A stretch of DNA of 64,000 nt from Chloroflexota bacterium (GTDB lineage: Bacteria > Chloroflexota > UBA11872), in assembly GCA_034428595.1 (NCBI GenBank), contig DAOUHO010000110.1:112-64111 (forward strand), read 5' to 3'. The notes beneath the pieces were generated by a model that made no database searches, had not been told where the DNA came from, and saw nothing but the letters and a program-made list of their open reading frames with translations. Position 1 is the stretch's first letter; every line of letters begins with the position of its first letter. The position numbers and the translations under genes are program-made. This document shows, one piece after another, positions 3,256 to 60,511 of this stretch.

Positions 3256-4122
3256 TCATGCACCAACTCTAACGCTGTAATCAAGCGTCGAAAACTCTTC
3301 GGACTCGAAAGCCGGTGAATTGGGCGACCACGTCAGGCGTCGCGTTGTCTGTGCCAATGTCGGCGCGCTTACGACATATCGCTCATCGTAGCGTCGATAC
3401 ATTGTTGCGAAGAAACTCTCGAAATTGGTTGGTCTGTCACTAGCTGGAAAGTTGGTCATCAGCTCTCCGATACGGCCGGGATGCATGTCAATCAATGCCA
3501 TCGACACTGCCTCATAGCGGCTAACGTCATCGCGAATCCCCAGCCTGCCTGTCATCTCGCACAATGCGGCGTGGAAGCGAATGATTGCCTCGACTGGTTC
3601 GCCGCAGGAGCTGATCGCAACGTCGTTAGGCTTTACTCCCTCGGACTCTTGGTTTGCACGAACGACGAACAAATATCCAAATACGAGTGTTGGATAGATG
3701 ATGTGAATGTTGGTGCATTCGCCAATGGTCTCTTCTAGTCTGTTGGTAAGATTGCGAACGGCACCAGTCATACCCTTGCAGGAAACGGCCAGAACGGGCC
3801 CGATACCCTTTTTTGTGGCAACGATGTCGACGCTCTTGGTCTTCAAACCGCCGAGAACTGTCGCTTCATTGTCGGTAGCTCTTTCCGGGTCGTAGACTAG
3901 TCGACGTTCATTGCGACTGCGTATGACCGTGAACGGCGGTCGCGGTATAAGATCATCGGGATGGAATCCACCCTCGATGACTAATCGGGCAGTCACATAT
4001 TTGTGAAGTGGCCTTATGTGCTGCTGAGTCTGCGTCCGTCCATCGAACTCTGCAAAATGCCTGAATGCATGTAGCCTGTTCGACCAACCTTTTTCTAGAT
4101 GTAGCCTATCGAGGCTAGGCAT
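3256..4122 (-). CDS. putative Type II restriction endonuclease (context-based call)
   Basis: 288 aa; start codon overlaps the stop of the upstream MTase (ATGCCTAG at 4115-4122); same low-GC block; possible D...(D/E)xK arrangement around SVDIVATKK but no named family recognised. Confidence 0.4.
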   Translation of the reverse strand: MPSLDRLHLEKGWSNRLHAFRHFAEFDGRTQTQQHIRPLHKYVTARLVIEGGFHPDDLIPRPPFTVIRSRNERRLVYDPERATDNEATVLGGLKTKSVDIVATKKGIGPVLAVSCKGMTGAVRNLTNRLEETIGECTNIHIIYPTLVFGYLFVVRANQESEGVKPNDVAISSCGEPVEAIIRFHAALCEMTGRLGIRDDVSRYEAVSMALIDMHPGRIGELMTNFPASDRPTNFESFFATMYRRYDERYVVSAPTLAQTTRRLTWSPNSPAFESEEFSTLDYSVRVGA

Positions 4123-5602
4123 AGTGCCTCCAAGTGCGCAACGTGGAGACGGCGTTTTGGATTTCTGAGTTCGGTAGGCGGTGGACTACGCGAGCCGACG
4201 GGATCACGACCCGTGCGGCCTCAGTTGGCTCGAGTTTCAGCAAACCGCCGCCGAGCGCATGGCCTTCAAGCTCGCAACTGAGCTGAACGTACCGCGAACA
4301 CCAGGCGTCATGGATTTCGCCGACGCGGTGCCGATCATGGACACGCACCGCATGCAAGGCGTTGGTGCAGGTCACGCCGGCCGAGTTCCGCACCAGGTTC
4401 GGCGAGAGGCCTGCCATGTACGTCAGGAAGAAATCAGGCACGCGCACGTCAGGTACGGAATACCAGGGCTTGCGCGTGCGGCACTTGTACGCCTCACGAG
4501 CTTGCCATCCCGCCTCGGAGTCGAGATAGTTCAAGACACTCATCGGTGGGTCCACGTCCTTGGGAATACGAAGTAGCAGCATTGGCTCGTCTGAACTCCG
4601 CCAAGCATCGACGGTTTGTGTCGTAAGTTCTCGGCTTGGCAGTACGCGGCTGTTCCGCACCGTTGGGTATAGGAAGGGATTAGGAATACGCCATGTGTTG
4701 ACCTCTGATGGTCGGAGGTGAAAGAACTCGTTCGACCCGCTCACGTAGCCGATTCCAATTGACGCCACAGAGCCGAGCCGCACCGAGTCCATGTGCTTGG
4801 CCACGGCTTGATAAAGCGATCGGGCACTGTCGCTTAGCAGATAGGGTCGCAACCGCCGGTTCCACACGCGCCGCCATTCGTGGACCGGCAGGTGAACGGC
4901 ATGGCGCGGAGGTACGTCGGGAAACTGCAGTTGTTCGAGCGGCGTGAAGCGGATCTCATCCGTTGAGCCGCCGAACCCTTCGGCGAACAACAACCAGCAA
5001 TCTTCGGAGAGCTGCGGAAAAAGCTTGTGGCGAATCGCAACGATATGAATGTCATCAAAGTGCTCGACGAAGTAATCGAGGAGCGGCGCGGCATACGGAG
5101 CGTGGCCAATGGCTGCAGGCACGACGAACGCGAGCCGGCCGCCCGGACGCAAGAGCCCCGCGGTTGCAACGAGAAAAGGCGCCCAGGACGCCGTGAGCCC
5201 TGAAAACTCGACTCCGAGGCTGGCGCACAGCGAGAGGGCACGTTTCCGTACCTCTCCCTTGAACGTCTGGTAGCGAATGAACGGCGGATTGCCGGCTGCG
5301 CTGTCGAAACGTCTGTCCGTGTGCTTGGCCCAGGCGAAGAAGTCACCCTGGTGAATCGTAGTCCACGGTGCTCGTTGCTTAGCCGTAGCTGCGGCTGTGG
5401 CGTCTTGTTCAACGCCGACGCTGTTGCGATGGGCGGCGACGAAGCGCCCATCGCCGCATGATGGATCAAGAAGCCAATCAGTGCTCTTGCGAACGGCCCA
5501 GCGAACCAGCTCGATGGCTACGCCTTCAGGCGTGTAGTACGCACCGCTCGCTTTCTGTGAGCGATCGATCGTAGGGGAACGATAGAGCGTGCGATCAAGC
5601 AA
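4115..5602 (-). CDS. N6-adenine DNA methyltransferase, gamma-class (Eco57I/TaqI-like N-6 DNA methylase family) with C-terminal TRD-like region
   Basis: 495 aa; motif X GAYYTPEGVA, motif I LLDPSCGDGRF, motif IV GNPPFIRY in gamma-class order, then a ~240-aa C-terminal region; region GC visibly lower than flanks. Confidence 0.85.
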   Translation of the reverse strand: MLDRTLYRSPTIDRSQKASGAYYTPEGVAIELVRWAVRKSTDWLLDPSCGDGRFVAAHRNSVGVEQDATAAATAKQRAPWTTIHQGDFFAWAKHTDRRFDSAAGNPPFIRYQTFKGEVRKRALSLCASLGVEFSGLTASWAPFLVATAGLLRPGGRLAFVVPAAIGHAPYAAPLLDYFVEHFDDIHIVAIRHKLFPQLSEDCWLLFAEGFGGSTDEIRFTPLEQLQFPDVPPRHAVHLPVHEWRRVWNRRLRPYLLSDSARSLYQAVAKHMDSVRLGSVASIGIGYVSGSNEFFHLRPSEVNTWRIPNPFLYPTVRNSRVLPSRELTTQTVDAWRSSDEPMLLLRIPKDVDPPMSVLNYLDSEAGWQAREAYKCRTRKPWYSVPDVRVPDFFLTYMAGLSPNLVRNSAGVTCTNALHAVRVHDRHRVGEIHDAWCSRYVQLSCELEGHALGGGLLKLEPTEAARVVIPSARVVHRLPNSEIQNAVSTLRTWRHYA

Positions 5603-5719: not shown

Positions 5720-6901
5720 CTACCAGGAAACAGAGACCTCCCCCAACAGCCCGCCAATCCGCCCCAGCGTCTCGGGCCGCAGCAGGCCGAAGTTGTAGAC
5801 CGCCACGCGGTCGACGGGCAGTTTCGCGATCCGTTCCAGGCGCGCGGCGAATTCGGGGCCGCCCGGGCCCATCTCGTCGGAGCCCCACAGGCTGACCAAC
5901 AGGTCGATCTCGCGCTTGGCCGACCGGGCCAGCGCCACTTGCGCCTTGGCCTCGTCGGCCTCATCCGTCGGGTCCGGGAGCAGCAGGCCGTCGATCCGCT
6001 CGGACAACTCAGCTAGGCGCAACCCGGTGGGGCCCCAGCCGGCGGAGACGTGGGTCAGACTCAGCCGCGTCCCGGTTCCTCGCAGTGCCCGCTGCACGCC
6101 TTCCACCAGGCGCGTCGCCGATTGCTCGCGGGCTTCCAGGTAGCCGCGGAACTCCTCGTCCGCCTCGCCGCGCGCGGCGACCACGGTCTCCAGGTCGCCG
6201 GACGCTTGTTTGCTCGCAAGACGTTCGCGCAACTCACGCGCCACGTTCTCGCGCACCTCCACGGCGTCCACGCCGTGCGTCCGCGCCGCGGTGAGGCAGT
6301 TCTCGCAAAAGCACAAACCGGCCAGGAATCGGGTCCACGGATCGAGGTCGATCAGGATGCGCTCGCGCACCCATCCATAGGCGAAGTCCGGGTGCCCCGG
6401 CCGCTCCAGCAGCGCGCTGTGCACCGGATACTGCTCGCACAGATCGGCCACCAGCACGGCCAGGTATTCCTGTACGTCCGGGCTCGCCGGGCAGGTTGTG
6501 GCATAGCTGCGCGCGCCGAAGACGTTCTCGATCGCTGTATCCGGATAGGCGCGGGCGATCCACGGCTGGAACATGGCGATCACCCAGGCGTTGAGCTGGA
6601 TGCCGCGCGACGGGGCGTGCTCGGCGGCCTGCGCGTAAGCGCTTAGTACCTCCGGCTCATCAAAGAGGCGGGGCTTGATGCGTCCGTATCGCTCCGCGCG
6701 GGCCGGAAAGTACACCGCGCCCTGCTCGGAGTAGTGAATCGACCGCTCCAGGTTGCGTGGTGCGAAGGTGGAGATGGCGTGGTAGTTGGGGCAGAGCTCG
6801 ATCGCGTTGAATCCCGCGCCACGCAGCCAGTCCAGCGCCGACGCCACGCCCTCGTCGGCCAGGTCCCACGGATAGGCCCAGACGGAGATTCGCGCGCGCA
6901 T
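5720..6901 (-). CDS. hypothetical protein (possible TIM-barrel hydrolase-like fold)
   Basis: 393-aa ORF with host-like GC and codon usage; no motif assigned. Confidence 0.5.
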   Translation of the reverse strand: MRARISVWAYPWDLADEGVASALDWLRGAGFNAIELCPNYHAISTFAPRNLERSIHYSEQGAVYFPARAERYGRIKPRLFDEPEVLSAYAQAAEHAPSRGIQLNAWVIAMFQPWIARAYPDTAIENVFGARSYATTCPASPDVQEYLAVLVADLCEQYPVHSALLERPGHPDFAYGWVRERILIDLDPWTRFLAGLCFCENCLTAARTHGVDAVEVRENVARELRERLASKQASGDLETVVAARGEADEEFRGYLEAREQSATRLVEGVQRALRGTGTRLSLTHVSAGWGPTGLRLAELSERIDGLLLPDPTDEADEAKAQVALARSAKREIDLLVSLWGSDEMGPGGPEFAARLERIAKLPVDRVAVYNFGLLRPETLGRIGGLLGEVSVSW

Positions 6902-6998
6902 GGCAGGCTCCTCAGCGGTCGTGGACCTATCGTAGATTGCCAGGCAGTGGCCGCTGCTACCCGTTCTTCATTGCTGGCATGTATCAATTTCGATACAC

Positions 6999-7358
6999 TT
7001 GGCTCAACCTGTGGACTTGAAGCGCGTCCCGGCGGTCTTCTTTCGTTCGCGGACCGGGGCGGAGCCGATTCGGGACTGGCTGAGATCCCGGGACAAGCAG
7101 GATCGATTCAGGATTGGAACGGACCTCAAGACGGTTGAGTTCGGCTGGCCGATTGGAATGCCGACGTGCCGACCACTTGGCCAGGGCCTCTTCGAGGTGC
7201 GCACCACGCTCGACAACAGGATTGCCCGAGTCTTGTTCTGCATCGGTAACGGACGAATGATCCTGTTGCACGGTTTCATCAAGAAGACGCAGAAGACGCC
7301 GAAGGCAGACCTCGACCTGGCGCGAACACGCAAGCGCGCCTGGGAGGACGCATCGTGA
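6999..7358 (+). CDS. type II toxin, HigB/RelE-like (phage Gp49-like, DUF891 family)
   Basis: 119 aa; family-typical C-terminus ...GRMILLHGFIKKTQKTPKADLDLAR; 4-nt overlap (ATGA) with downstream HTH gene. Confidence 0.75.
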   Translation: MAQPVDLKRVPAVFFRSRTGAEPIRDWLRSRDKQDRFRIGTDLKTVEFGWPIGMPTCRPLGQGLFEVRTTLDNRIARVLFCIGNGRMILLHGFIKKTQKTPKADLDLARTRKRAWEDAS

Positions 7359-7657
7359 CAAATACGGCCAACCCACACCTCGGGTCCACCCTGGATGACC
7401 TGCTCGATTCCGACGGTACTCGCGCTGAAGCCGAGGCCGTTGCGGTCAAGCGCGTCATTGCTTGGCAGATCGACCAGGCGATGGCTGCGGAACGCCTCGG
7501 CAAGGCCGAGATGGCGCGGCGCATGAATACGAGTCGGGCTGCCCTGGACCGCCTGCTCGATCCCGACAATGTCTCGGTGACCCTGCGGACGCTGCACAAG
7601 GCCGCCGCCGCCCTCGACAAGCGACTCGAGATCGAGCTGGTCGACTCCGCAGTCTGA
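7355..7657 (+). CDS. HTH XRE-family antitoxin (HigA-like)
   Basis: 100 aa; helix-turn-helix segment AAERLGKAEMARRMNTSRAALDRLLDP; translationally coupled to the upstream toxin. Confidence 0.75.
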   Translation: MTNTANPHLGSTLDDLLDSDGTRAEAEAVAVKRVIAWQIDQAMAAERLGKAEMARRMNTSRAALDRLLDPDNVSVTLRTLHKAAAALDKRLEIELVDSAV

Positions 7658-7803
7658 CCAGCTCCGAGCGTTTGTCCTGTGTCTGGACAATATCTATTCC
7701 GCGTTGGCTTAACCGGGCGTGGCCTGACTCTTCAGCCGACAGCCGTGCCACCCGTCCATAATGGACCGTCGCGCGTGGCCACTCAGCTCAAGGAAGCAAG
7801 CCG

Positions 7804-8742: not shown

Positions 8743-9438
8743 CTAACCGTCGTCGGCGCCACTCCGCAGATTGTGCGTGAGCACGCCCACGACGCCCGCG
8801 GCGAGTCCGCCGGCAATCGGTCCGAGCCAGTAGATCCAGTGCGACTCGAAGTTCCAGTTCACGATGGCGGGACCCAGGCTGCGCGCCGGGTTCATCGAGG
8901 CGCCGGTGATCGGGCCGCCGACCAATATCAAGGCGCCCAGCGTCGCGCCGAGGGCGGCGCCCGCCGCAGTGGCCGGCACCTTGCCGCTCACGGCCACCCC
9001 GATGACCACGGACACCAGCAGGAACGTCAGCACGGCCTCGAGCAGGAATGCCTGCCCGGCGCTCACGTCGGCCGCCGGCAGCGTCATAGCCGTGCCCGGT
9101 CCCATTGGCCAGGTCCAGGCGTGCAGCAGCGCACCGAACAGCCCGCCCGCGATCTGCGCAATGACGTACGGAGGGACTTGCCGCAGCGGGAACTTGCCGA
9201 TGGCCGCCAGGCTCAGCGTCACGGCCGGATTGATGTGGCAGCCGGATACGTGGCCGATGGCATACACCAGACCCGCCAGGATGCAGGCGTGGCCGAAGGC
9301 CGGAATGAGCAGGTCGCCGGCGGCAATGCCGCCGAACCCGACCTGCGCCATGGATGTCGTCATCATGGCGACGAACACGAGCAGCGTCGTGCCGACGAAC
9401 TCGGCCAGCAAGACCCGCGGCTGCAGCGACATGATCAA
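8743..9438 (-). CDS. aquaporin (MIP family, AqpZ-like)
   Basis: 231 aa, 6 TM; both NPA boxes present (SGCHINPAVT and GASMNPARS). Confidence 0.9.
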   Translation of the reverse strand: MIMSLQPRVLLAEFVGTTLLVFVAMMTTSMAQVGFGGIAAGDLLIPAFGHACILAGLVYAIGHVSGCHINPAVTLSLAAIGKFPLRQVPPYVIAQIAGGLFGALLHAWTWPMGPGTAMTLPAADVSAGQAFLLEAVLTFLLVSVVIGVAVSGKVPATAAGAALGATLGALILVGGPITGASMNPARSLGPAIVNWNFESHWIYWLGPIAGGLAAGVVGVLTHNLRSGADDG

Positions 9439-9655
9439 GGGGCAAGTCCCGGTCCTGGTTTCCCGCTCCGCGCCTGCGCGGGGACAGGCTTCGCGGGAGT
9501 GACGACATCTGAGCGGCGAGTCGATGATTCCAGGCCGGCCGCCGCGGTGCCAACAGGATTCGCTTATTGAGATATCATCGCATTAGTAAGCTGCCAATCG
9601 TTGACAATGGGCGCGACCGGCCGGCGTCCATTGCGACCGGCGATCCTGGAGGTCT

Positions 9656-10957
9656 ATGCCTGAACCGCCGCCGCTGACGCACTCGCGCCTGTGGCGACCT
9701 GGCCAGCCCATCAACCGCCGCGCGCTTCTCGGGGCATCGCTCCTTGGCGCGGCGGCGGCGGCAACGACCCCGCTGCTCGCGCAATCGGTAACCGAGGATG
9801 AGATCTCGGAAACCGAGGAGGAAGTGGAGCGCGTCGATAGTGAGCGGCGCGCGGCCGAGGCGCTCGTGGAGGCGTCGATCGCGCGCGAGAGCACGTTGCA
9901 GCAGCAACTGGCCGTCATCGACCGCGACCGCTATCTGGCCGCCGAGCGGCTGCTTGCGGTCAAGCGAGAGCTCGAGACCGTGGAGCTCGAGGTCTTCGAT
10001 ATCAACCAGTCCATCGGCCAGCTCAACGTCGCGCTAGCCAGCGAGACTTCGGTGCTCGAACGGAAGGCGCGATCGCTGTATAAGGCAGGCCGCACGACGT
10101 TGCTGGAAACGGTCCTCGCGGCCGACTCATTCGCCGGCGCGCTTGACCGCGCGGCCTCGCTCGAGCGGTTGCTGGCGCGCGGCGTCGCCGACATCGGCCA
10201 GCTCCGGTTGCGGCGCAGCGAGATTCAGCTGCGCACGGCCGACCTGACGGCGCGCTTGGACCGGCAACAGGAACTGCAAGCCGAGGCCCAGTCGATCGAG
10301 GCTGAGCTGGCGCGCCGGGCCGAGGAACAGCGCGACCTCATCTTCAGCGTGCAGCAGGAGCAGGCGGAGCGCGTGGAGGACGTAAAGGTCTATGAGCGTG
10401 AGGCGGAAGCCATCGCCTACCGCGTCCGGCTCCTGCGAGACATTCGCGAGCGAGAGCTCATTGAGTTGGAGCGACGACGCCGGGCCGCCGAGGCGCTGGA
10501 GCAGGCGCAGCGGTTGGCCCGAGAGGTCATTAGCCAGCAGGGTCCAGGCGCCGCCGGCCCCTATATCTGGCCGCTGCTGGGTCTCATCACCACCGAGTAC
10601 GGCGGGTGCACCTTTGGGCAGTGTCCCCACCTGGGTATGGACATCGCCGCTTCGTCGGGCACGCCCATCGTGGCGGCCAACGACGGCGTGGTGCTGGCCG
10701 CGGGGTTGGTCGTGCCCGGCGACCGGCGCGCCTCATACGGGATGATCGTGGTCATCGCGCACAGTGAGACCGAAGAAACCCTCTACGCGCACCTCGACGA
10801 CCTCACGTGGCCGCCGCCGGTCGCGCCGGGACAGTTCGTGAGCCGCGGCCAGACCATCGGCTTCGTCGGCCTCACCGGGTGGACCACCGGCCCCCACCTG
10901 CACCTTGAGTATCGCGTCGGCGGCGCCGCTAGTGACCCGCGGCGGGTGCTCGTCTAG
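9656..10957 (+). CDS. M23 family peptidoglycan metalloendopeptidase with coiled-coil N-terminal domain (EnvC-like)
   Basis: 433 aa; twin-arginine-like signal (NRRALLGASLLGAAAAA); long heptad-rich region; C-terminal LytM motifs HLGMDIAA ... GPHLHLE. Confidence 0.85.
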   Translation: MPEPPPLTHSRLWRPGQPINRRALLGASLLGAAAAATTPLLAQSVTEDEISETEEEVERVDSERRAAEALVEASIARESTLQQQLAVIDRDRYLAAERLLAVKRELETVELEVFDINQSIGQLNVALASETSVLERKARSLYKAGRTTLLETVLAADSFAGALDRAASLERLLARGVADIGQLRLRRSEIQLRTADLTARLDRQQELQAEAQSIEAELARRAEEQRDLIFSVQQEQAERVEDVKVYEREAEAIAYRVRLLRDIRERELIELERRRRAAEALEQAQRLAREVISQQGPGAAGPYIWPLLGLITTEYGGCTFGQCPHLGMDIAASSGTPIVAANDGVVLAAGLVVPGDRRASYGMIVVIAHSETEETLYAHLDDLTWPPPVAPGQFVSRGQTIGFVGLTGWTTGPHLHLEYRVGGAASDPRRVLV

Positions 10958-14256: not shown

Positions 14257-15162
14257 GTGACCTCTGAGGCCGTACCCGCCGTCCGGCGGGACGCTCCCGA
14301 GACGGCATCCTCTTCGCGCAAGTCTGTCGTCGTTCGCAACCTTCCCTTCACGCTTGTGCACCTCTTGGCGTTTGCCGCCATTTGGACGGGCGTGAGTTGG
14401 CCGGCCGTGGTGGTGTGCCTGGGCCTCTACTGGATGCGCGTGTTCTTCATTACCGGCTTCTACCACCGCTATTTCTCCCATCGGAGCTATCGCACCTCGC
14501 GCGTGTTTCAGGCGGTGATCGCGTTTCTCGGCACCACCGCCATGCAGAAGGGGCCGCTGTGGTGGGCCGGTCACCACCGATTTCACCACCGGCACTCGGA
14601 CGACGAGGAGGATGTGCACTCCCCGCTGCACGGGGGCTTCTGGTGGGCGCACATCGGCTGGCTCATCCGCGTGAGCCGCGACGACACGCGCTGGGACGAG
14701 GTCAAGGATTTGGCCCGTTTTCCCGAGTTGCGCTTCTTCGAGAGCCACTACCGGCTCGGCATGGCTGCCTACGCGGGCGGGGTGATTGGCCTTGGATTCT
14801 GGCTGGAGCACTCGTTCCCGCAGACGGGCGTCACCTGGGGGCAGGTGCTCGTGTGGGGCTTCGTCATCAGCACGGTGATGCTGTGGCACACCACCTACCT
14901 CATCAATTCCGGCGCCCACATGTGGGGCGGCCGCCGATTCGATACCAAGGACACCAGTCGCAACAACTTTTGGCTGGCGCTAGTCACCATGGGAGAGGGC
15001 TGGCACAACAACCACCACCGCTATCCCGGGTCCGAGCGCAACGGGTTCTATTGGTACGAAGTCGACGTGACCCATTGGGGACTCACCGTGCTGAGCTGGC
15101 TCGGTTTGGTGTGGGACCTGCGCCGCCCGCCGCGCCACGTCTACGAGAGCGCCTCGCGCTAG
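14257..15162 (+). CDS. acyl-CoA (stearoyl-CoA Delta9-like) fatty acid desaturase
   Basis: 301 aa membrane protein with the three His boxes (HRYFSH, HHRFHHRHSD, HNNHHRYP). Confidence 0.85.
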   Translation: MTSEAVPAVRRDAPETASSSRKSVVVRNLPFTLVHLLAFAAIWTGVSWPAVVVCLGLYWMRVFFITGFYHRYFSHRSYRTSRVFQAVIAFLGTTAMQKGPLWWAGHHRFHHRHSDDEEDVHSPLHGGFWWAHIGWLIRVSRDDTRWDEVKDLARFPELRFFESHYRLGMAAYAGGVIGLGFWLEHSFPQTGVTWGQVLVWGFVISTVMLWHTTYLINSGAHMWGGRRFDTKDTSRNNFWLALVTMGEGWHNNHHRYPGSERNGFYWYEVDVTHWGLTVLSWLGLVWDLRRPPRHVYESASR

Positions 15163-15188
15163 CCGGAAACCCTTGCGCCACCCCGTCC

Positions 15189-15215
15189 GTCATTCCGGCG
15201 GAGGCCGGAATCCAG
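15189..15215. repeat. REP-like hairpin repeat copy (gtcattccggcggaggccggaatccag)
   Basis: 27 nt after desaturase stop; stem TCCGGCG/CGCCGGA. Confidence 0.7.
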
Positions 15216-15386
15216 ACCAGCCCAACCTGGAGCGCGCGAGGTTTCCCCTGGACATCCTTCGCTCGACCGGGGTGTACCAGGGGCGCCATTCGTGGGAATG
15301 CCGGATTCACAAATGGCCGCTTCGGCGCCTCTTGCCCGTTGGCTGGCTTCAGCTAACACTATGAGAACGGCGATCGGAGGGGCATC

Positions 15387-16295
15387 GTGCGCGTAGCGCT
15401 CACCGGCGGCAGCGGCCTCATCGGCGGCGCGGTCACCGCCGCGCTCGAAGCCGAGGGGCATGACGTCATCCATCTCGTCCGTCCGCCCCGTCGTGCCGCC
15501 GAGGGCCAGGTTGCCTGGGACCCGATCGCCGGCACCATCGACGCGGGGGGTCTCGAAGGCCTCGACGCCGTCGTGCACCTGGCCGGTGAGCCGACCACCG
15601 CCTGGCGTTGGACGGCTGCCAAGAAGCGCCGCATTTACGCCAGCCGGGTGGACGGAACGCGGCTGCTGGCGGAAACGCTGGCCGTGCTGCAGTTTCGCCC
15701 CCGCGTCTTCGTGTCCTATTCCGCGGTGGGGTACTACGGTGACCGTGGCGACGAAGTCCTGCGCGAGGACAGCTCGCCTGGGTCGAGTTTCCTGGCGAAA
15801 GTCGCGACCGATTGGGAGGCCGCCGCTCATCCCGCCGCCGGCCGCGAAATCCGGGTGGTGCATCTGCGCGGCGCGCCCGTGGTGGCGGGCCACTCCGCGT
15901 TTCTGACGCGCCAGGCGCCTGCCTTCAAGCTCGGGCTGGGCGGCCCATTGGGCAGCGGCCGCCAATGGTGGCCCTGGGTGGCGCTGGAGGACGTGGTGGG
16001 CGTCGTGCGGCACGTGCTGGCGCGCGACGACCTGCGGGGCCCCATAAACGTCGTGGCCCCGGAGCAGTGCACCAATCTCAAGTTCGCGCGCACCCTGGGT
16101 CGTGTGCTTGGCCGACCGGCCCTGCTGCCGATGCCGTCGCCGGTCCTGCGCGCAATGATGGGTGAGATCGCCGACGAGATGCTGCTGGCCAGCCAACGAG
16201 TCGAGCCCGCTCGACTCATCGCCTCCGGCTACCACTTCCACTTCCCGATGTTGGAGCACGCGCTGCGGCACGCGCTCGGCTGTCCGTCCGCCTGA
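15387..16295 (+). CDS. TIGR01777-family NAD-dependent epimerase/dehydratase (YfcH-like, DUF1731 C-terminus)
   Basis: 302 aa; GTG start 6 nt after GGAGG; N-terminal TGGSGLIGG Rossmann motif. Confidence 0.8.
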   Translation: MRVALTGGSGLIGGAVTAALEAEGHDVIHLVRPPRRAAEGQVAWDPIAGTIDAGGLEGLDAVVHLAGEPTTAWRWTAAKKRRIYASRVDGTRLLAETLAVLQFRPRVFVSYSAVGYYGDRGDEVLREDSSPGSSFLAKVATDWEAAAHPAAGREIRVVHLRGAPVVAGHSAFLTRQAPAFKLGLGGPLGSGRQWWPWVALEDVVGVVRHVLARDDLRGPINVVAPEQCTNLKFARTLGRVLGRPALLPMPSPVLRAMMGEIADEMLLASQRVEPARLIASGYHFHFPMLEHALRHALGCPSA

Positions 16296-16352
16296 GGCTC
16301 GACCGTCGCGCGACGGTGCGCGAGACTGCCCGCGTCCAGCGCTGCTCGACCG

Positions 16353-17480
16353 TTGAGGGAATCCATGCTCAGCACTGAGGGATGTCGGGCGCGCACGCGC
16401 CGCTTGCTCGAACGCGTCGACGCCGACGTGGAGACGCTGGTCGTCACGCGGCCCGAGCACGTCTTCTACCTGGCCAACTACATGCCGTCGCCCAGCGACA
16501 TTCACCATCGCGCGCCGCAATACCTGGTCATCCAACGCGGCGGACCCACGACGCTCATTCTCGATGGGTTCGCCAAGCTCGACGGCGAGCCGGCCGTTGA
16601 TGAGGTCGTCCATGGTCCCTGGCGCGTGGCGGAGCCCGACGAGACCCGCGCCCACTGCACGGCCAGCGCCGCCATCGACCTGATTGGAAAGCTCGGGAGC
16701 CAGATCATCGGCGTCGAGCGTGCCGCGGTGCCCGCCGCCGTCGCCGCCGCGGCGCCCGAGGTTCGAGACATCGAGCCTCACCTCGGCCGCATGCGCCAGG
16801 TCAAGGACCCGGACGAGCTGGAGCTGATCCGCGCCGCCGTGCGGGTCGGCGAGGCCATGCACGCGGCTTCGTGGGAATGTCTGGCGCCCGGCATGCGCGA
16901 GATTGATGCCTACGCCGCCATCGTGACCGCCGGCCTGGAAGTGGCGGAAGGGCCGTTCGTGATGATGTGCGAGTTCATCTCCGGCCCCCGGGTTGTGCCG
17001 CGCCGCGGTGACCCCGGCCCGCGTGTCATGGAGGCCGGTGACAACGTCGTCATGGACCTGTTCCCCTACGTCAACGGCTACCGCTGCGACCTCACCAACA
17101 CCATCACCCTCGGCGGGCGGCCCACGCCGGAGCAGCAGCACGCCTTCGACGCGGTGCACGAGGCGTTGACGGCCTCCGAGGCCATGATTCGGCCCGGCGT
17201 TCGCGCACAGGACATCTACGCCGTGCAGGACGCCGTGCTGCGGCGCGCCAACTCGGACTGGGGACTTCCGGGCCACGCCGGACACTCGCTCGGACTGGAG
17301 CATCCCGAGGCGCCCGATTTCGTGCCCGGCGTCGAAGGCGAGGTGCTGCAGGGCATGGTCATCGCCCTAGAGCCCGGCGCCTACGGCATGCCCTTCCACG
17401 GCGTGCGCCTGGAGCACAACTACCTCGTCACCGCCGACGGTTTGGAGCGGCTCTCCAACCACCGCCTGGGGCTGGTGTAG
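16353..17480 (+). CDS. M24 family metallopeptidase (Xaa-Pro aminopeptidase/creatinase-like)
   Basis: 375 aa; pita-bread fold metal ligands incl. HAGHSLGLEHPE. Confidence 0.85.
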   Translation: MRESMLSTEGCRARTRRLLERVDADVETLVVTRPEHVFYLANYMPSPSDIHHRAPQYLVIQRGGPTTLILDGFAKLDGEPAVDEVVHGPWRVAEPDETRAHCTASAAIDLIGKLGSQIIGVERAAVPAAVAAAAPEVRDIEPHLGRMRQVKDPDELELIRAAVRVGEAMHAASWECLAPGMREIDAYAAIVTAGLEVAEGPFVMMCEFISGPRVVPRRGDPGPRVMEAGDNVVMDLFPYVNGYRCDLTNTITLGGRPTPEQQHAFDAVHEALTASEAMIRPGVRAQDIYAVQDAVLRRANSDWGLPGHAGHSLGLEHPEAPDFVPGVEGEVLQGMVIALEPGAYGMPFHGVRLEHNYLVTADGLERLSNHRLGLV

Positions 17481-17519
17481 CAGAGTCCGAGTAGAGCAGA
17501 GTCTGCGCCTCGTACGAGC

Positions 17520-17957
17520 CTAGAGGTGGACGATTTCGAGGTCGCCCCAATGCTGCTGGAGATACTCCGCCACCAGGCGGCGGTGGCAGTGATCCGGCGT
17601 GTCCTCGCTGCATAGCAAGCATCCGTCAGCGAGTGCCTGTTTCACGGTCGACATTTCCTCTATGCGCCGATCGCCCATCAGCGCAAGGAATTCGCCCTCA
17701 TAGGTTGCCCAATCGCGATGCTCCTTGCGGTACGCGTTGAGCATCTCCTTCGTAGGCGCCAGATCGGGCACGTGGACATAATCCATCCGACAGATCTTGT
17801 CGAGAAAGTACATAAGGTCATCTCGCTTGGCGAAGCCCGCCAGCTGCGAGACGTTGTTCAGCCGCACGTCCACGACTCGCTTCGCGCCCGAATCGAGCAA
17901 GCGCCCAAAGAAATCGGCAGCGGAGGTCTTTGTGAAGCCGATGGTGTAGAGCCTCAA
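17520..17957 (-). CDS. DUF488 family protein (short paralog)
   Basis: 145 aa; MRLYTIGFTK...VVDVR core matches DUF488 (YeaO-like); 4-nt overlap with upstream DUF488 gene. Confidence 0.75.
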   Translation of the reverse strand: MRLYTIGFTKTSAADFFGRLLDSGAKRVVDVRLNNVSQLAGFAKRDDLMYFLDKICRMDYVHVPDLAPTKEMLNAYRKEHRDWATYEGEFLALMGDRRIEEMSTVKQALADGCLLCSEDTPDHCHRRLVAEYLQQHWGDLEIVHL

Positions 17958-18628
17958 AAGTCATTCTCCCAATCGTCGCCACTTGCGATCGGTACCGCGC
18001 CGACATGCGCCACCTTCGCCGCCTGACGGGACAGCGCATCGGCGACCAGATCATCGCGGGAGCGTGGCAGACCACCGTTGCCGCGATCCGCCGTCGCGAA
18101 CATGTCCATCTGCTCGACAGGGGAGAGCTTGTGCAGGCGCAGCAGCCGGTCCATGGCGGCGGCGTGCTCTTCGAGGCTGCCGTCAGCGTGAATGTGCGCC
18201 ACGGCAACACCTCGGTCCACGAGAGCCCTGGCGACCAGCAGGGTGCGGTGACAGTCAAGCGGTTCCTTTTCGGCGCACATCAATGCGATGCGACGCTCAT
18301 CGGCCCCGTGAATGACCTGCCGGATTCCGTCATCGAATGTGTCGCTCTGCGCCAGCCGGTCGTATAGAACGCGTCCGTCGGCGTCATAGCACGACCGGTC
18401 GCTTGGCCGGCCGCCCAACTCTCCACCCATGAAGTCATAGCCGATTCCCACGTTTTCCAGCGCTTCGGACAAGACTCGATGGCTGAAATGGGGTGTGTAG
18501 CGACTGTACGGCGACGACCGAACGTCCGCGACCTCATCGATGCCATGAGCCCGCAGCAACTCCAGAAACGCTTCGAGCGAATGGTTGGAGTGCCCGACGG
18601 TAAACACGGGATGCTGCGTCACACTCAC
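17954..18628 (-). CDS. DUF488 family protein (long paralog)
   Basis: 224 aa; DUF488 signature FTVGHSNHSLEAFLELLRAHGIDEVADVRSSPYSR. Confidence 0.8.
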   Translation of the reverse strand: MSVTQHPVFTVGHSNHSLEAFLELLRAHGIDEVADVRSSPYSRYTPHFSHRVLSEALENVGIGYDFMGGELGGRPSDRSCYDADGRVLYDRLAQSDTFDDGIRQVIHGADERRIALMCAEKEPLDCHRTLLVARALVDRGVAVAHIHADGSLEEHAAAMDRLLRLHKLSPVEQMDMFATADRGNGGLPRSRDDLVADALSRQAAKVAHVGAVPIASGDDWENDF

Positions 18629-18640
18629 GGCACTTCCGCG

Positions 18641-19363
18641 TCAGGGTCTGATGATGGCGGCAATGAGTTTATACGCAAAGCCCTCGAACGGCTCGCCCAG
18701 GCTAATGGTCAGAAACCTATCCTCGTCTACCACGAATGAGCCAGCCCCCAACTCCGCAGCCGCCTTCTCGCTGACGGGGTCGGTTATGCGGAGAGAATAG
18801 TCGTTACCGTGATACTTGAACTTTCCGCGTAACCGATAAGTATTGCTTGCGATGTTTTGCGATATAAGTACTTCTAGTCTATCGATCTTGATAAGGCAAA
18901 GTGAGCTTCTAAGAGAAAAGGCAAGATCCTCTGGTACTCGGTCGTTGAATCCGCTACGGCTGCTATGTCCGTTGTTCCAGAGTGTCTTGGCTTGGTCGGC
19001 CCACTGCGGCAAGTCATCCCAGCGTATACGACCAACTTTGCCCCAGCGGCGTCCTGGATCGAGTAGCCAGTTTTCCTGCTGATACCCGTGAGGGTGTGCG
19101 CGAGAGACTGGCACATTGATGACATCGAGAACGCACGGCTCGCTGCCGTCCATCAGCCGTCGTTCGGCTGCCGAGACTTCCTCGTGCTCTCGATTGCTCA
19201 CTGGCCGCACCCACCCTCCCGGTTGCCTGTTGTCGAGGAGTTGCTTGCCGGCGATACAGCGTCCCCCCAGCTTACGTGAGTTTGCCAGACACACGATGCG
19301 CTTCACGGTACTGGATCGTGCAGAAAACCTGTACGCTCGAAATCGTTCGAACAAGCGCATCAC
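18641..19363 (-). CDS. hypothetical protein, unclassifiable (conserved-looking VCLANSRKLGGRCIAGK segment)
   Basis: 240-aa ORF 12 nt upstream of the DUF488 pair, same strand; markedly lower GC (~45%) and A/T-ending codons; no recognisable motif. Confidence 0.5.
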   Translation of the reverse strand: MMRLFERFRAYRFSARSSTVKRIVCLANSRKLGGRCIAGKQLLDNRQPGGWVRPVSNREHEEVSAAERRLMDGSEPCVLDVINVPVSRAHPHGYQQENWLLDPGRRWGKVGRIRWDDLPQWADQAKTLWNNGHSSRSGFNDRVPEDLAFSLRSSLCLIKIDRLEVLISQNIASNTYRLRGKFKYHGNDYSLRITDPVSEKAAAELGAGSFVVDEDRFLTISLGEPFEGFAYKLIAAIIRP

Positions 19364-19553
19364 GAGCAGTCGTACGAAACACGTCTGAGCGCCAAATGAT
19401 AGCGTTTACACGCTCATGGCCGACGATCCCTGGCAACGATCAATCTCGTGGCCTGCTCGAAGATGTGACGTTCTGGCCGATGATTCGCCTGCCACACAGT
19501 CCCAGATGCGCACAGTCCGCTGGCATAGTCGGAGAGTTGACCACGTTGCGCCC

Positions 19554-20453
19554 ATGCGAGAAGGTCAACGCACCACCAATGAATCTGTGACGGAGGCGGC
19601 GATGGCCGTTGAGGCGGCGACGCGGCAGATTGACGATCGAGACTGGTCGGTGCTGACCCTCGGCGAGCGCATCCGGCAGATCGAGGTCGAGGGCTACCTG
19701 GTCCTACCCGACCTGCTCACGCCCGAGCGGGTGGCGGAGCTCAAGGAGGTCACTGCGACCTGGGAAACCGTCGCCACCGACTACAGCAAGAGCCAGCAGG
19801 TTCGTCCCGGCGTGGAGTTTGCCGGCGGGCTCATCAACGATCTGATCGCCAACCCGCCGACGCTGGAATTCCTGCGCGCGCTCTGCGGACCGGACATCAT
19901 CCTGATGTCGGTGGCCTATGCGCGCTCCGAGCCCGGCCATCCCGGCATCAGCCTGCACACCGACGGCCAGCCCTACGGATCCAAAATCTTCGGCTACGGC
20001 GGCAGCGCGCCCTTCATGGTCCGGGTGCTCTACTACCTCGACGATCTGACGCCCGAGGTCTCGCCGTTTCGCGTCGTGCCGCGGTCCCATCTCGCCTTCC
20101 ACGCCGACGCAAATCCCTATCTCCGCTTCGAGGGCCACCCCGAAGAGGTCATGGTGCCCGCCAAGGCGGGATCTGCCGTGCTGATCAATCACCGCGTGTT
20201 CCACGGCAACTTTCCCAATACGGGCGATCGGCCGCGGGAGATGCTTGCCATCGCCTACCGGCCCGCCTGGGCGGGACCGCAGGGCGACGTGCCGGCCTGG
20301 GACCCCGACGCCGTGGCGGCGCTGCCCGACCACGTGCGCCCGCTGTTCGCCGATCGCAACACCCGTCACTGGCTTCCCGAGGGCGGCAACAAGCCGGCGG
20401 GCATGCAGTCCGAGGCGCCGGGAATGAATCCCAGCCGCTGGGAGATGGCTTAG
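19554..20453 (+). CDS. phytanoyl-CoA dioxygenase (PhyH) family Fe(II)/2-oxoglutarate oxygenase
   Basis: PhyH motifs HTDGQ ... H(RVF)HGNFPN; ORF open from 19416, ATG at 19554 (or 19602) chosen as start. Confidence 0.75.
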   Translation: MREGQRTTNESVTEAAMAVEAATRQIDDRDWSVLTLGERIRQIEVEGYLVLPDLLTPERVAELKEVTATWETVATDYSKSQQVRPGVEFAGGLINDLIANPPTLEFLRALCGPDIILMSVAYARSEPGHPGISLHTDGQPYGSKIFGYGGSAPFMVRVLYYLDDLTPEVSPFRVVPRSHLAFHADANPYLRFEGHPEEVMVPAKAGSAVLINHRVFHGNFPNTGDRPREMLAIAYRPAWAGPQGDVPAWDPDAVAALPDHVRPLFADRNTRHWLPEGGNKPAGMQSEAPGMNPSRWEMA

Positions 20454-30595: not shown

Positions 30596-31459
30596 ATGGC
30601 GGCACAGGCATCCCCCGAACCACCCAAACTCCTTCAGTTGGCCGCGATCAACAGCTTCATGGGCCACCCCAGCCCGGACCGCGAATGGAGCTTCGAACGC
30701 AAGATTGCGGAGGTGGCCGGGGCTGGATTCGACGGGTTCACGGGACGCACGCCGCCGATCACCCGCAGGATGGTGGACGACTCGGGCCTGCTGTTCTGGT
30801 GCACGGCCGACATCGAAACCGCGCGCGACGTCAGGCCCGCGCTGACCGCGGCGCAAGAGGCCGGCGCGGCGACCGTCAATGTGCAGATGGGCAATCACGA
30901 CACGCCCACGCGATCGGCGGTGGCGCTGGCGCGGCGGACGCTGGCCGCGGCCGACGAGATTGGGATCGAGGCGGCGATCGAGGTGCACCGCGACACGGCC
31001 ACCGAGACGCCCGAGAAGGCCTACGCCCTGGCGGACGGCTTCGCCAAGGCCGAAGGCCGGCTGCTGCCCATGGTGTGGGACCACTCGCACCCGGCCGTCA
31101 TCAAGCACCTGCCCCCGCCGTTCGCCGGCCGCCTGCTGGACCGGCCGGAGCTGGTCCAAAACTCGAACTGGTTTCACCTGCGCGCCTTCAACGGGCATCA
31201 CGCCCAGGTGCCGGTCATCGACGCCGACGGCAATCCAACGCCCGAGTTCCACGACTGGATCGAGTTCGTCGACGAGCTCATCAAGCTCTGGCTGGAGGCG
31301 GCGGCCCCCGGCGCCACGCTGTGGACCTGCCCCGAGATGATCGCCAGCGGCTACCGGCTCTCGGTCTTCACGGATAACTGGAGCCAGGCGCTGTTCATAC
31401 GCGACGCCGTCGCCGACGTCTGGCGCCGCCGCCTGCCCGACTGGTCGCCGCCGGCCTAG
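30596..31459 (+). CDS. sugar phosphate isomerase/epimerase-like TIM-barrel protein (xylose-isomerase-like fold)
   Basis: 287 aa; AP-endonuclease-2/xylose-isomerase-like TIM barrel features; moderate. Confidence 0.55.
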   Translation: MAAQASPEPPKLLQLAAINSFMGHPSPDREWSFERKIAEVAGAGFDGFTGRTPPITRRMVDDSGLLFWCTADIETARDVRPALTAAQEAGAATVNVQMGNHDTPTRSAVALARRTLAAADEIGIEAAIEVHRDTATETPEKAYALADGFAKAEGRLLPMVWDHSHPAVIKHLPPPFAGRLLDRPELVQNSNWFHLRAFNGHHAQVPVIDADGNPTPEFHDWIEFVDELIKLWLEAAAPGATLWTCPEMIASGYRLSVFTDNWSQALFIRDAVADVWRRRLPDWSPPA

Positions 31460-31666
31460 GCGCCCACCTGCAGTTCCCAACCATTCGATCCGTGTAGGGG
31501 CGCCCCTAGTGGGCGCCCGTCCTGATCGATCCGGGCAGCCACCAGGGCTGCCCCTACGCCGACTCGACTCTGCCCGGTGGCCCAGGCTGCGTGCAGCCTG
31601 GGAATTCCTCCGCCGCGCCGCCTCACTAAGATGCCGCCAAACATCTGCGCTTTGCAAGGAAACTTA

Positions 31667-31697
31667 CTTGACAGAGAGACACTCAAGTCTTACGATA
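31667..31697 (+). promoter_or_regulatory. hsp20 promoter with HAIR-like inverted repeat (CTTGACA-N7-ACTCAAG) overlapping -35; -10 TACGAT
   Basis: TTGACA(31668-73)-17 nt-TACGAT(31692-97), 55 nt upstream of hsp20 ATG; the inverted repeat matches the HspR operator consensus CTTGAGT-N7-ACTCAAG at 12/14 positions. Confidence 0.5.
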
Positions 31698-31752
31698 CCT
31701 CCGACAGATCGAAACGTCGGTCCGAAAGGCGGACCGCACGGAGGAGGACACG

Positions 31753-32184
31753 ATGGCCACCATTCAGCGTTGGGACCCGTTCCGCGAGTTGCTTGGCATT
31801 CACGACGCCATTGGGCGACCCTGGCGCCGCTCGGCGCTGCCCACGCGCGCATCTTCATGGGTGTTGCCGGTCGACGTCCGCGAGGACGAGAACGCGATCG
31901 ACATCAGCGCGTCGCTGCCCGGCGTCGCCAAGGACGACATCGAGATTTCCGTCGAGCACGGCGTGCTCACCATCCAGGCCAAGAGCGGCGACACGGACGA
32001 GTCGACGGGTGACGGCTACGTGCTCCGCGAGCGGCGCGCCGGTAGCTTCTATCGCGCCCTGCGCCTGTCGGATCGCGTGGACGCCGCGGCCGCCACGTCC
32101 AGCTACGCCGACGGCGTGCTCACGGTGACCGTGCCCAAGCTGGAGGCCAGCAAGCCCAAGCGAATCGAAGTCACGGTCGCGTAA
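31753..32184 (+). CDS. Hsp20/alpha-crystallin family small heat-shock protein
   Basis: 143 aa; alpha-crystallin domain (VDVREDENAIDISASLPGV...GVLTVTVPK); GGAGGA RBS. Confidence 0.9.
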   Translation: MATIQRWDPFRELLGIHDAIGRPWRRSALPTRASSWVLPVDVREDENAIDISASLPGVAKDDIEISVEHGVLTIQAKSGDTDESTGDGYVLRERRAGSFYRALRLSDRVDAAAATSSYADGVLTVTVPKLEASKPKRIEVTVA

Positions 32185-32331
32185 CTCTCCCCCACGGCGG
32201 CGGCCCGAGGGAGGTCGGGCCGCCGCCGGCGCGTTTCCACCCTGCTCCGGCGGCGCGAATAGACGGGCTGGCGCCGCCTCGCTACTTTCTGGGGAGCCGC
32301 CACGAAATCCACGCGGCACGGAGACGCTGCC

Positions 32332-33291
32332 ATGAAGGTGCTGATAGTCCCGCACGCCGACTACTACGTCCTGCCGACGGACGAGCTCCGCGCGGAGTTT
32401 CCCGACGCGACCTTCGTCGAGCCGCAGACCCCCGAGGAGCGGCTGCGCGAGGTCGTCGACTCGGACGCCTTCTACGGCACGCCGACCGGCGACGAAATGC
32501 GCGCGGCCACGCGCCTGCGCTGGATCCACAACCCCGGCATGGGCATCGACCGGCTGATGAAGGTGCCCGAAATCGTCGCCTCCGACGTCGTGATCACCAA
32601 CTCGCCGGGGCCTCACACTAACCCCATGGCCGATCACGCATTCATGTTCATCCTGGCCCTCGCGCACCATCTCATGGAGTCGCTGGACGACCAGCGGCAG
32701 CGCGTGTGGGACACGGTGAAATACAACCACCGCATGCTGCCGCTTGATGGAAGCCGCGTGGGCATCCTCTCGATGGGCGGCGTCGGTCGCGCCGTCGCCC
32801 AGCGCGCGCTGCCCTTCGGCATGCACGTCTCCGCCATGGATCCCAGCCCCACCGACGTACCCGCCGGCGTGCGCAAGGTCTACCCGCCCGAGGAATTGGA
32901 CGAGATGCTTCAGCACACGGACTGGCTGGTCGTCACCTCGCCGTTCATTCCCGCGACCGCCAACCTGATCAATGCCGAGCGCATGGCGCTCATGCCCGCG
33001 GGCTCGCACATCGTCGTCGTGTCGCGCGGTGGGATCGTGAATGAGGACGACTTGGCCGAGGCGCTGCACGGCGGCCACATTGCGGGCGCCGGGATCGACG
33101 CCACGGCCGTTGAGCCGCTGCCGCAGGACAGCCCGCTCTGGACCGCGCCCAACATCCTCATCTCGGCGCACACCTCGGCCTTGAGCACGACGCTTGCCGC
33201 CGAGCGCCAGCAGATCTTCCACGCCAACCTGCGCCGCTTCGCCCAGGACCGCCCGCTGGCGTTCGTGTGCCCCCTCGGCCGGGGATACTAG
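32332..33291 (+). CDS. D-isomer-specific 2-hydroxyacid dehydrogenase family protein
   Basis: 319 aa; NAD-binding GILSMGGVGRAVA; catalytic R/E/H region ...VVVSRGGIV... HTSAL. Confidence 0.85.
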   Translation: MKVLIVPHADYYVLPTDELRAEFPDATFVEPQTPEERLREVVDSDAFYGTPTGDEMRAATRLRWIHNPGMGIDRLMKVPEIVASDVVITNSPGPHTNPMADHAFMFILALAHHLMESLDDQRQRVWDTVKYNHRMLPLDGSRVGILSMGGVGRAVAQRALPFGMHVSAMDPSPTDVPAGVRKVYPPEELDEMLQHTDWLVVTSPFIPATANLINAERMALMPAGSHIVVVSRGGIVNEDDLAEALHGGHIAGAGIDATAVEPLPQDSPLWTAPNILISAHTSALSTTLAAERQQIFHANLRRFAQDRPLAFVCPLGRGY

Positions 33292-60509: not shown

Positions 60510-60511
60510 TC

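Follow-up and report, generated by a model that had tools for sequence, protein, structure and literature searches.

Three tightly packed genes at positions 17520 to 19363 of a 64,000-nucleotide stretch of Chloroflexota DNA (contig DAOUHO010000110.1; the whole stretch is called the window here) are almost certainly an instance of PDC-M45, a three-gene cassette in PADLOC, since the Pfam and PADLOC scores of all three products lie far above threshold and the genes stand in the order A, B, C. Gene A encodes DuOB, a protein with two predicted oligonucleotide/oligosaccharide-binding (OB) folds, and genes B and C encode a long and a short protein of the DUF488 family. Our overall reading, to which we assign a probability of roughly 0.5, is that the cassette is a DNA-directed module for conflict with phage or plasmids. 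Taken by itself, a conflict role of some kind is slightly favored, because related cassettes are embedded in Hma and bacteriophage exclusion (BREX) operons, have restriction-modification (R-M) genes and a cyclic oligonucleotide-based anti-phage signaling system (CBASS) as neighbors, occur on plasmids, show a deficit in guanine-plus-cytosine (GC) content, and display sequence identities that are incongruent with taxonomy. The link to DNA is drawn from the resemblance of A to OB folds, from its conserved aromatic and basic residues, and from fusions of DuOB to RecQ and to an ABC ATPase. That the DUF488 proteins carry out a cysteine-dependent chemistry on terminal sugar-phosphates is a more tentative proposal.

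PDC-M45 was described as the three-family cassette CAS_00153 in supplementary table 8 of Payne, Hughes, Fineran & Jackson (2024, bioRxiv 10.1101/2024.01.29.577857), where the criterion for discovering phage defense candidates was embedding within BREX, DISARM, or type I R-M systems. The genes in the window share with the cataloged system the order of the three families, their adjacency, and their common strand; the products match its models end to end, and homologous cassettes lie inside Hma and BREX. They differ from it in two respects. No defense system adjoins or encloses the cassette in the window, where genes for PhyH and an M24 peptidase border it, and the host is an uncultured, high-GC member of the Chloroflexota, whereas the candidate was defined mostly on RefSeq genomes of cultured bacteria. 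A preliminary description of this DNA had presented the block as an uncharacterized module. In the sense of unrecognized that description no longer applies, the trio being already cataloged, and the locus is a further copy of that system rather than a new kind of system. Our literature search found no mention of PDC-M45, nor of DuOB in the protein sense.

In the list of open reading frames (ORFs) of the window, A, B, and C form a close array on the minus strand with a total size of 1.8 kb. The longest ORF of gene A (18641 to 19363) has 240 codons from a GTG at 19363, or 239 if an ATG at 19360 is used, and the core matched by Pfam begins at about 19303. Gene B (17954 to 18628) encodes 224 amino acids from a GTG start; its DUF488 domain covers residues 17 to 132 and is followed by a C-terminal extension of about 90 residues. 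Gene C (17520 to 17957) encodes 145 amino acids from a TTG start. A and B are separated by 12 nt (18629 to 18640). Genes B and C share an overlap of 4 nt on the minus strand (17954 to 17957), where the sequence TTGA contains both the stop codon of B (TGA) and the start codon of C (TTG). The preliminary description had reported the three packed minus-strand ORFs, the 12-nt gap, and the length of the overlap, all of which agree with our reading; the overlap itself it gave as ATGA, which is incorrect. A zero-gap or overlapping junction between B and C recurs in many related loci, and the TTGA overlap suggests that translation of the two is coupled. All three genes are predicted to lie on one transcript.

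Predicted folds and conserved residues of the three proteins

The product of gene A had at first been called unclassifiable, a protein without a motif that could be placed. It is in fact matched over the entire length of Pfam model PF22557, DuOB (E = 7.6e-66, 222.6 bits against a cut-off of 27, model positions 1 to 210 of 210), and by PADLOC model PDC-M45A (PDLC04653; 4e-83, residues 19 to 239 against model positions 3 to 224 of 230). Homologs are plentiful: a word-indexed search returned 2585 matches, and an exhaustive search returned 2745 clusters at 50% identity, 535 of them with E ≤ 1e-30, which disposes of the earlier concern that the 240-codon ORF might lack conserved relatives. The AlphaFold2 model of A (predicted local distance difference test, pLDDT, 89) consists of two strand-rich halves that form two beta-barrels, as expected of OB folds, and structure comparison places the DuOB model close to the OB folds of MCM10, RPA, CST, PriB, SSB, RMI2, and BRCA2. 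The likeness to RPA, SSB, RMI2, and CST, OB-fold proteins that bind single-stranded DNA (ssDNA) or DNA ends and are associated with RecQ-type helicases, goes beyond the fold, in that DuOB itself occurs fused to RecQ, RQC, and HRDC domains. Among the viral structures of BFVD nothing reached E ≤ 0.001 for DuOB, the only matches being weak ones to OB folds resembling SSB or LEF-3. Sequence searches of the PDB returned no meaningful relative of A (profile search), B, or C, and no NCBIfam model matches any of the three.

In a sample of A homologs at 30 to 55% identity, residues A8, S10, C17, A19, G20, W32, R34, E78, N79, and T175 are invariant, and C6, N9, D61, Q76, W88, W110, D122, D176, Y212, and K213 are nearly so. 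The aromatic and basic residues in this set, which include W32, R34, W88, W110, Y212, and K213, occur together with a polar cluster and suggest a specific nucleic-acid or nucleotide ligand. Judging from the predicted fold, the conserved residues, and the RecQ/HRDC fusions, DuOB probably binds ssDNA or DNA ends and serves as the targeting part of the cassette. The N-terminal extension of A is kept in close homologs of 239 to 245 amino acids. In the public annotation of the only contig with an exact match (L001, 493 to 1062), the DuOB gene is called at 189 amino acids and is missing the conserved N-terminal strand that carries the motif C-L-A-N-S-R-K; automatic annotation thus truncates the gene.

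The assignment of both shorter proteins to DUF488, already made in the preliminary description, is borne out by Pfam model PF04343 (cut-off 22.2 bits), which B matches at 84.2 bits (1.4e-23) and C at 79.6 bits (3.9e-22). Their PADLOC counterparts, PDC-M45B (PDLC04657; 2.3e-74) and PDC-M45C (PDLC04658; 4.1e-71), are each covered over nearly the whole model. As with DuOB, whose predicted structure consists of OB folds, the domain scores are far over the Pfam gathering scores. Pfam further separates "active" and "inactive" subclades of DUF488-N3, and here the two paralogs part company: C belongs to the active N3 subclade, passing PF22751 (DUF488-N3a) at 47.1 bits against a cut-off of 27, whereas B scores 14 bits with that model, does not reach the cut-off of either N3 model, and passes the general DUF488 model only. 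DUF488 is a large family that includes YeaO of Escherichia coli. Among the literature matches listed for it, the name serves as an annotation label only.

Seven residues of B (C118, E120, P123, L124, C126, H127, and R128) are invariant in 74 orthologs, and C has a corresponding set in C116, E118, C124, H125, R126, and R127. Because the Cys/His/Arg motif is invariant in both proteins, both look catalytically competent, and the notion that B is an inactive paralog can be discarded on the same ground. The AlphaFold2 model of C (pLDDT 88) has a Rossmann-like alpha/beta fold of the kind found in protein tyrosine and dual-specificity phosphatases and in diphthine-synthase-like methylases, and it groups with cysteine phosphatases as well as with tetrapyrrole or diphthine methylases. 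In this model the invariant C116 ends a strand (residues 112 to 116), and C124-H125-R126 begins a helix (residues 125 to 137). The Cys/His/Arg loop is thereby predicted to occupy the topological place of the catalytic loop of cysteine phosphatases, with a different spacing, C-x-E-x5-C-H-R as opposed to the phosphatase C-X5-R. Burroughs and Aravind are said to have defined, in 2023, a rhodanese-phosphatase superfamily by just this mixture of phosphatase and methylase folds, and reportedly predicted DNA-end processing in virus-host conflict.

The presence of two paralogs in one operon invites a different explanation, namely that the cassette is an abortive-infection or toxin-antitoxin-like module in which one DUF488 protein is toxic to host nucleic acids and is restrained by its paralog or by DuOB until infection occurs. 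The close coupling of the paralogs through overlapping stop and start codons would suit such an arrangement, as would the division of DUF488-N3 into active and inactive subclades and the HigB-like and CcdAB modules found among the neighbors of related cassettes. Both paralogs, however, keep the full Cys/His/Arg motif, so that neither resembles an inactive inhibitor, and B belongs by score to neither N3 subclade. We regard this explanation as very improbable.

Distribution, defense contexts, and variant cassettes

A pattern scan of 185,579 species genomes gave 358 loci, and the best 80 of these 358 were fetched; they are the genome loci referred to below. Metagenome-assembled genomes (MAGs) of Chloroflexota or Dehalococcoidia account for 69 of the 80, and the remaining 11 come from Nitrospirota, Alphaproteobacteria, Binatia, Thermodesulfobacteriota, Latescibacterota, Holophagales, Steroidobacteraceae, and one Bifidobacteriaceae MAG. 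All 80 (one is cut by a contig end) have the genes in the order A-B-C on a single strand with very small gaps, and the order recurs in five of eight loci from IMG/VR. Together with fusions of DuOB to DUF488 (P0131 and P0262), this constancy supports the earlier supposition of a fixed multicomponent system; the contrary case, in which homologs of A would never neighbor DUF488, is excluded by the presence of the DUF488 pair beside DuOB in all 80. Seven loci of one Chloroflexota group carry a tandem duplication of A, giving A-A-B-C (L022, L049, L050, L052, L063, L067, and L068; at about 9175 to 10660 in most).

The identity of C to its homologs does not follow taxonomy. It reaches 72 to 73% in Thermodesulfobacteriota, Binatia, and Nitrospirales and is 56 to 59% in many Dehalococcoidia; the cassette is mobile across phyla. 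DuOB was also found on 22 plasmids. No DuOB homolog was found in 50,697 GenBank phage records, and two of the eight "viral" contigs from IMG/VR are really BREX operons and so provide no evidence of carriage by phage.

Association with defense systems elsewhere, a point raised in the preliminary description, is what we find, both inside Hma and BREX operons and beside R-M or CBASS genes. HmaB and HmaC enclose the cassette in three loci (L046, L048, and L064) and in a fragment (L073), and the cassette is set into type 1 BREX operons, in the arrangement BrxC-PglX-[ABC]-PglZ-BrxL, in two IMG/VR contigs (L084 and L088). In five Chloroflexota loci, four of them with the duplicated A and the fifth (L045) with a single A, it directly follows a Vsr-C5-methyltransferase and type II restriction-enzyme pair. 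Type IIG enzymes adjoin it in L017 and L042, and a MADS-like protein is encoded beside it in L058. On the Agrobacterium plasmid pAt1D1108a, the A-B-C cassette at 31284 to 33128 stands between a type III CBASS with a helix-turn-helix (HTH)/ImmA pair and genes for TcmP and DUF5131; an integrase is encoded farther along the plasmid. In one Dehalococcoidia locus (L015, 9281 to 9945) and about six others, the DNA directly upstream of the cassette holds a small ORF and a gene for a HigB-like toxin, whose Pfam score of 27.7 bits just clears the cut-off; the small ORF, which has no Pfam match, may encode a HigA-like antitoxin.

Fusions of DuOB to other domains point in the direction of nucleic acids. 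In addition to the fusions with DUF488, DuOB is joined to an HTH domain (P0237), to RecQ, RQC, HRDC, and HTH_40 domains (P0178, P0204, and P0182), and to an AAA_13 ABC ATPase (P0165). The gene for the ATPase fusion is followed by genes for B-type and C-type DUF488 proteins, and one of the RecQ-side fusions is followed by DUF488 gene fragments. The possibility of a nucleic-acid-directed system, which had been put forward from the first reading of the sequence, fits both these fusions to RecQ/HRDC and the ABC ATPase and the OB fold of A.

A variant cassette consists of DuOB, a short DUF488 protein, and a DUF4326 protein. We found it on plasmid pCF1807-5 of Citrobacter (plasmid positions 2444 to 4107; L090, 4986 to 6649), on pApiAE13b of Acinetobacter (L091, 4998 to 6686), and in three IMG/VR contigs (L082, L083, and L087), one of which (L083) encodes the third protein as a fusion of mSLOG and DUF4326. 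On the small plasmids the variant adjoins ParA, CcdAB, and replication genes. It resembles the cassette in the window in its tight packing on one strand, in a DuOB protein with 30 to 42% identity to A, and in a short DUF488 protein with 52 to 59% identity to C. It differs in being plasmid-borne rather than chromosomal and in having no long DUF488 protein, the DUF4326 protein following the short DUF488 protein instead. Since the variants keep the short DUF488 protein and carry DUF4326 in place of B, C appears to be the constant enzyme and B to occupy a slot that can be exchanged with a member of a sister family.

DUF4326 has been proposed to be a domain of the rhodanese-phosphatase superfamily and to process the terminal phosphates that the ribose of ADP-ribose carries, and SLOG domains, to whose superfamily mSLOG belongs, have been discussed as sensors of ligands derived from NAD+ or ADP-ribose (Iyer, Burroughs and Aravind 2022, PMC9503650). 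These proposals open the way to another account of the cassette, in which it would process ADP-ribose or nucleotide adducts on ssDNA (for example, a base modified by a DarT-type enzyme), either as an antidote to DNA-modifying toxins or as a plasmid-encoded anti-defense system that looks after incoming ssDNA. The occupation of the B slot by mSLOG-DUF4326 speaks for it, and so does the occurrence of the variant on small or mobilizable plasmids near partition, transfer, and toxin-antitoxin genes; one representative of the neighboring proteins matched DarG. Nevertheless, the version in the window contains neither a SLOG nor a DUF4326 domain, no ADP-ribosyltransferase is a consistent neighbor, and embedding in BREX and Hma operons would be expected of host defense rather than anti-defense. 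The absence of homologs from the phage records also counts against it. We consider adduct processing of this kind quite unlikely.

Composition, divergence, and genomic setting

The cassette differs in composition from the DNA around it. Its GC content is 59.1% (A, 55.3%; B, 63.0%; C, 58.9%) in a window that averages 67.0%. This is below the 5th percentile of windows of the same size, and only the region of the R-M genes, at 3.2 to 5.6 kb, has a lower value. GC content at third codon positions (GC3) is 0.61 in A, 0.73 in B, and 0.77 in C, as compared with 0.84 ± 0.07 for the other genes, a deviation that for A amounts to z = -3.3. The drop in GC had been noticed in the preliminary description, and the dip itself is real, but two of the values given there were too low: the figure of about 45% for A should be 55.3%, 40% being reached only in the 100 nt at 18800 to 18899 inside that gene, and the range of 58 to 60% for the DUF488 genes does not include B. 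A similar deficit recurs elsewhere, the GC content of the cassette being below that of the surrounding 20 kb in 69 of 76 loci, with a mean difference of -3.5 points and a largest one of -14.6.

Comparison with three syntenic relatives, the Chloroflexota MAGs L002, L003, and L010, gave ratios of nonsynonymous to synonymous divergence (dN/dS) of 0.15 to 0.29 for A, B, and C (0.16 to 0.20 for B). From these values we conclude that all three are functional genes under purifying selection, and the ratios together with the conservation of homologs rule out spurious or chance ORFs. The synonymous divergence (dS) of A stands apart. It is 1.25 to 1.74 over the three relatives, whereas B and C give 0.43 to 0.64 and the flanking genes 0.30 to 0.39 in L003 and L010 and 0.58 to 0.67 in L002 (where A gives 1.25), so that, within these genomes, A exceeds B, C, and the flanking housekeeping genes in dS by a factor of about 2 to 6. 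Protein identities to L003 and L010 follow the same gradient: 87 to 95% for the flanking proteins, 85 to 86% for C, 82 to 83% for B, and 67 to 69% for A. The raised dS suggests that alleles of A have been replaced within a fixed locus; an artefact of codon usage is the alternative.

Both flanks of the cassette are common to the window and the three relatives. On one side the gene for the M24 peptidase (16353 to 17480, plus strand) converges with C, and on the other the PhyH gene diverges from A, an arrangement that had been described correctly. The listed PhyH ORF begins too early, at 19416; its homologs start at a position equivalent to about 19554, which we take as the true start. The intervening region (19364 to 19553) is presumed, on its position only, to contain the promoter of the operon; a scan of 17300 to 19750 detected no sigma-70-like promoter and no intrinsic terminator. 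Direct or inverted repeats that might be an insertion scar do not flank the cassette, the only pairs being short and at the level of chance. Since the same PhyH/M24 peptidase site is occupied in three related genomes, the insertion is not recent and predates their divergence. The earlier claim of horizontal acquisition thus stands as far as foreign-looking composition is concerned, here and in the 69 other loci with a GC deficit, and fails with respect to a recent event. A 714-codon ORF on the minus strand (15159 to 17303), antisense to the genes for the epimerase and the M24 peptidase, is an artefact of high GC content and was rejected as a gene.

The R-M genes of the window comprise a type II methyltransferase of the Eco57I type according to Pfam (4115 to 5602, minus strand; PADLOC MTase_II, 4.5e-93) and an ORF of 288 amino acids (3256 to 4122, minus strand) with a weak match to REase_II (2.9e-06); beside them, at 5720 to 7690 on the minus strand, are two ORFs of 393 and 228 amino acids with no Pfam or PADLOC match. 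This region has the lowest GC content of the window (0.53 to 0.59). A resemblance in composition between it and the cassette, 12 kb away, had been pointed out, but about ten housekeeping genes intervene. A single island containing both is thereby ruled out, and the cassette lies outside any defense island in the window. AT-skew outliers were noted at 47501 to 49000 and 60501 to 61000 (+0.20 to +0.29, and -0.47), against a background near zero.

Several observations weigh against a role in conflict with phage or plasmids. The cassette occupies a stable, syntenic chromosomal site in the clade to which the window belongs, which would also suit a housekeeping role. The embedding by which PDC-M45 was discovered is absent here, where the neighbors are PhyH, the M24 peptidase, an epimerase, and a GFO oxidoreductase, and metabolic rather than defense genes also surround most Dehalococcoidia loci (an AMP-binding enzyme, a phosphotriesterase-family protein, and others). 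An obvious defense neighbor is present in only about 13 of the 80 genome loci, a minority by plain count. We know of no DUF488 protein with a known biochemical activity, and the conserved Cys/Arg spacing of the family is unlike that of the cysteine-phosphatase loop. Finally, PDC-M45 is a candidate only, one of 145 phage defense candidates (bioRxiv 10.1101/2024.01.29.577857).

These considerations lend some weight to a housekeeping function in DNA repair or end cleaning, in which ssDNA gaps or ends would be bound by DuOB and freed of blocking phosphates or adducts by the DUF488 pair, with immunity playing no part. RecQ, RQC, and HRDC are classical repair domains; in the clade of the window and many Dehalococcoidia the cassette keeps its place, in synteny, among housekeeping genes; purifying selection acts on it; and its neighbors are mainly metabolic. 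On the other hand, the distribution is patchy, with only those 358 matches in the 185,579 species genomes, and the identities are incongruent with taxonomy. A housekeeping gene set would also not be expected to show a recurrent GC deficit, to be found inside Hma and BREX operons, to reside on small plasmids beside toxin-antitoxin genes, or to include a gene as much more diverged than its flanks as A (dS of 1.25 to 1.74 against 0.30 to 0.39 in L003 and L010). On balance we find a purely housekeeping function unlikely.

A possible mechanism and its significance

If the cassette is a DNA-directed conflict module, as we have suggested, its parts could work together as follows. DuOB would recognize ssDNA or DNA ends, either exposed in the course of phage or plasmid replication or made by a helicase, and would recruit both DUF488 enzymes to the DNA. 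Through the C-x-E...C-H-R loop, B and C might then use a cysteine to hydrolyze or transfer the phosphate of a terminal sugar-phosphate, leaving a processed DNA end that would be unfit for replication, ligation, or packaging. C would be the constant catalytic partner, and in the variants an mSLOG-DUF4326 protein, which belongs to the same enzyme clade, would take the B slot.

Carried to its conclusion, this line of thought would make the cassette an immune effector with a chemistry new to defense: an OB-fold sensor loads two cysteine-dependent enzymes, which modify or remove a terminal (deoxy)ribose phosphate in two steps, with an interchangeable B slot and with alleles of A being swapped in a fixed locus. 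We offer this as a speculative possibility that is, on the whole, doubtful, but allele swapping of that sort would account for a dS of A about 2 to 6 times that of its neighbors.

The locus in the window adds little beyond another instance of PDC-M45. What it does bring out is that Chloroflexota and Dehalococcoidia commonly carry the cassette and that the DuOB gene diverges much faster than its partners; the family as a whole is a good experimental target. Small, rigidly conserved, present inside BREX and Hma operons, and carried on plasmids of cultivable hosts, the DuOB-DUF488 trio offers one of the clearer settings for discovering the activity of DUF488. If a chemistry of DNA ends or ribose phosphates proves to be correct, it would constitute a new enzymatic mechanism in bacterial immunity or DNA repair and would supply a function for three Pfam families.

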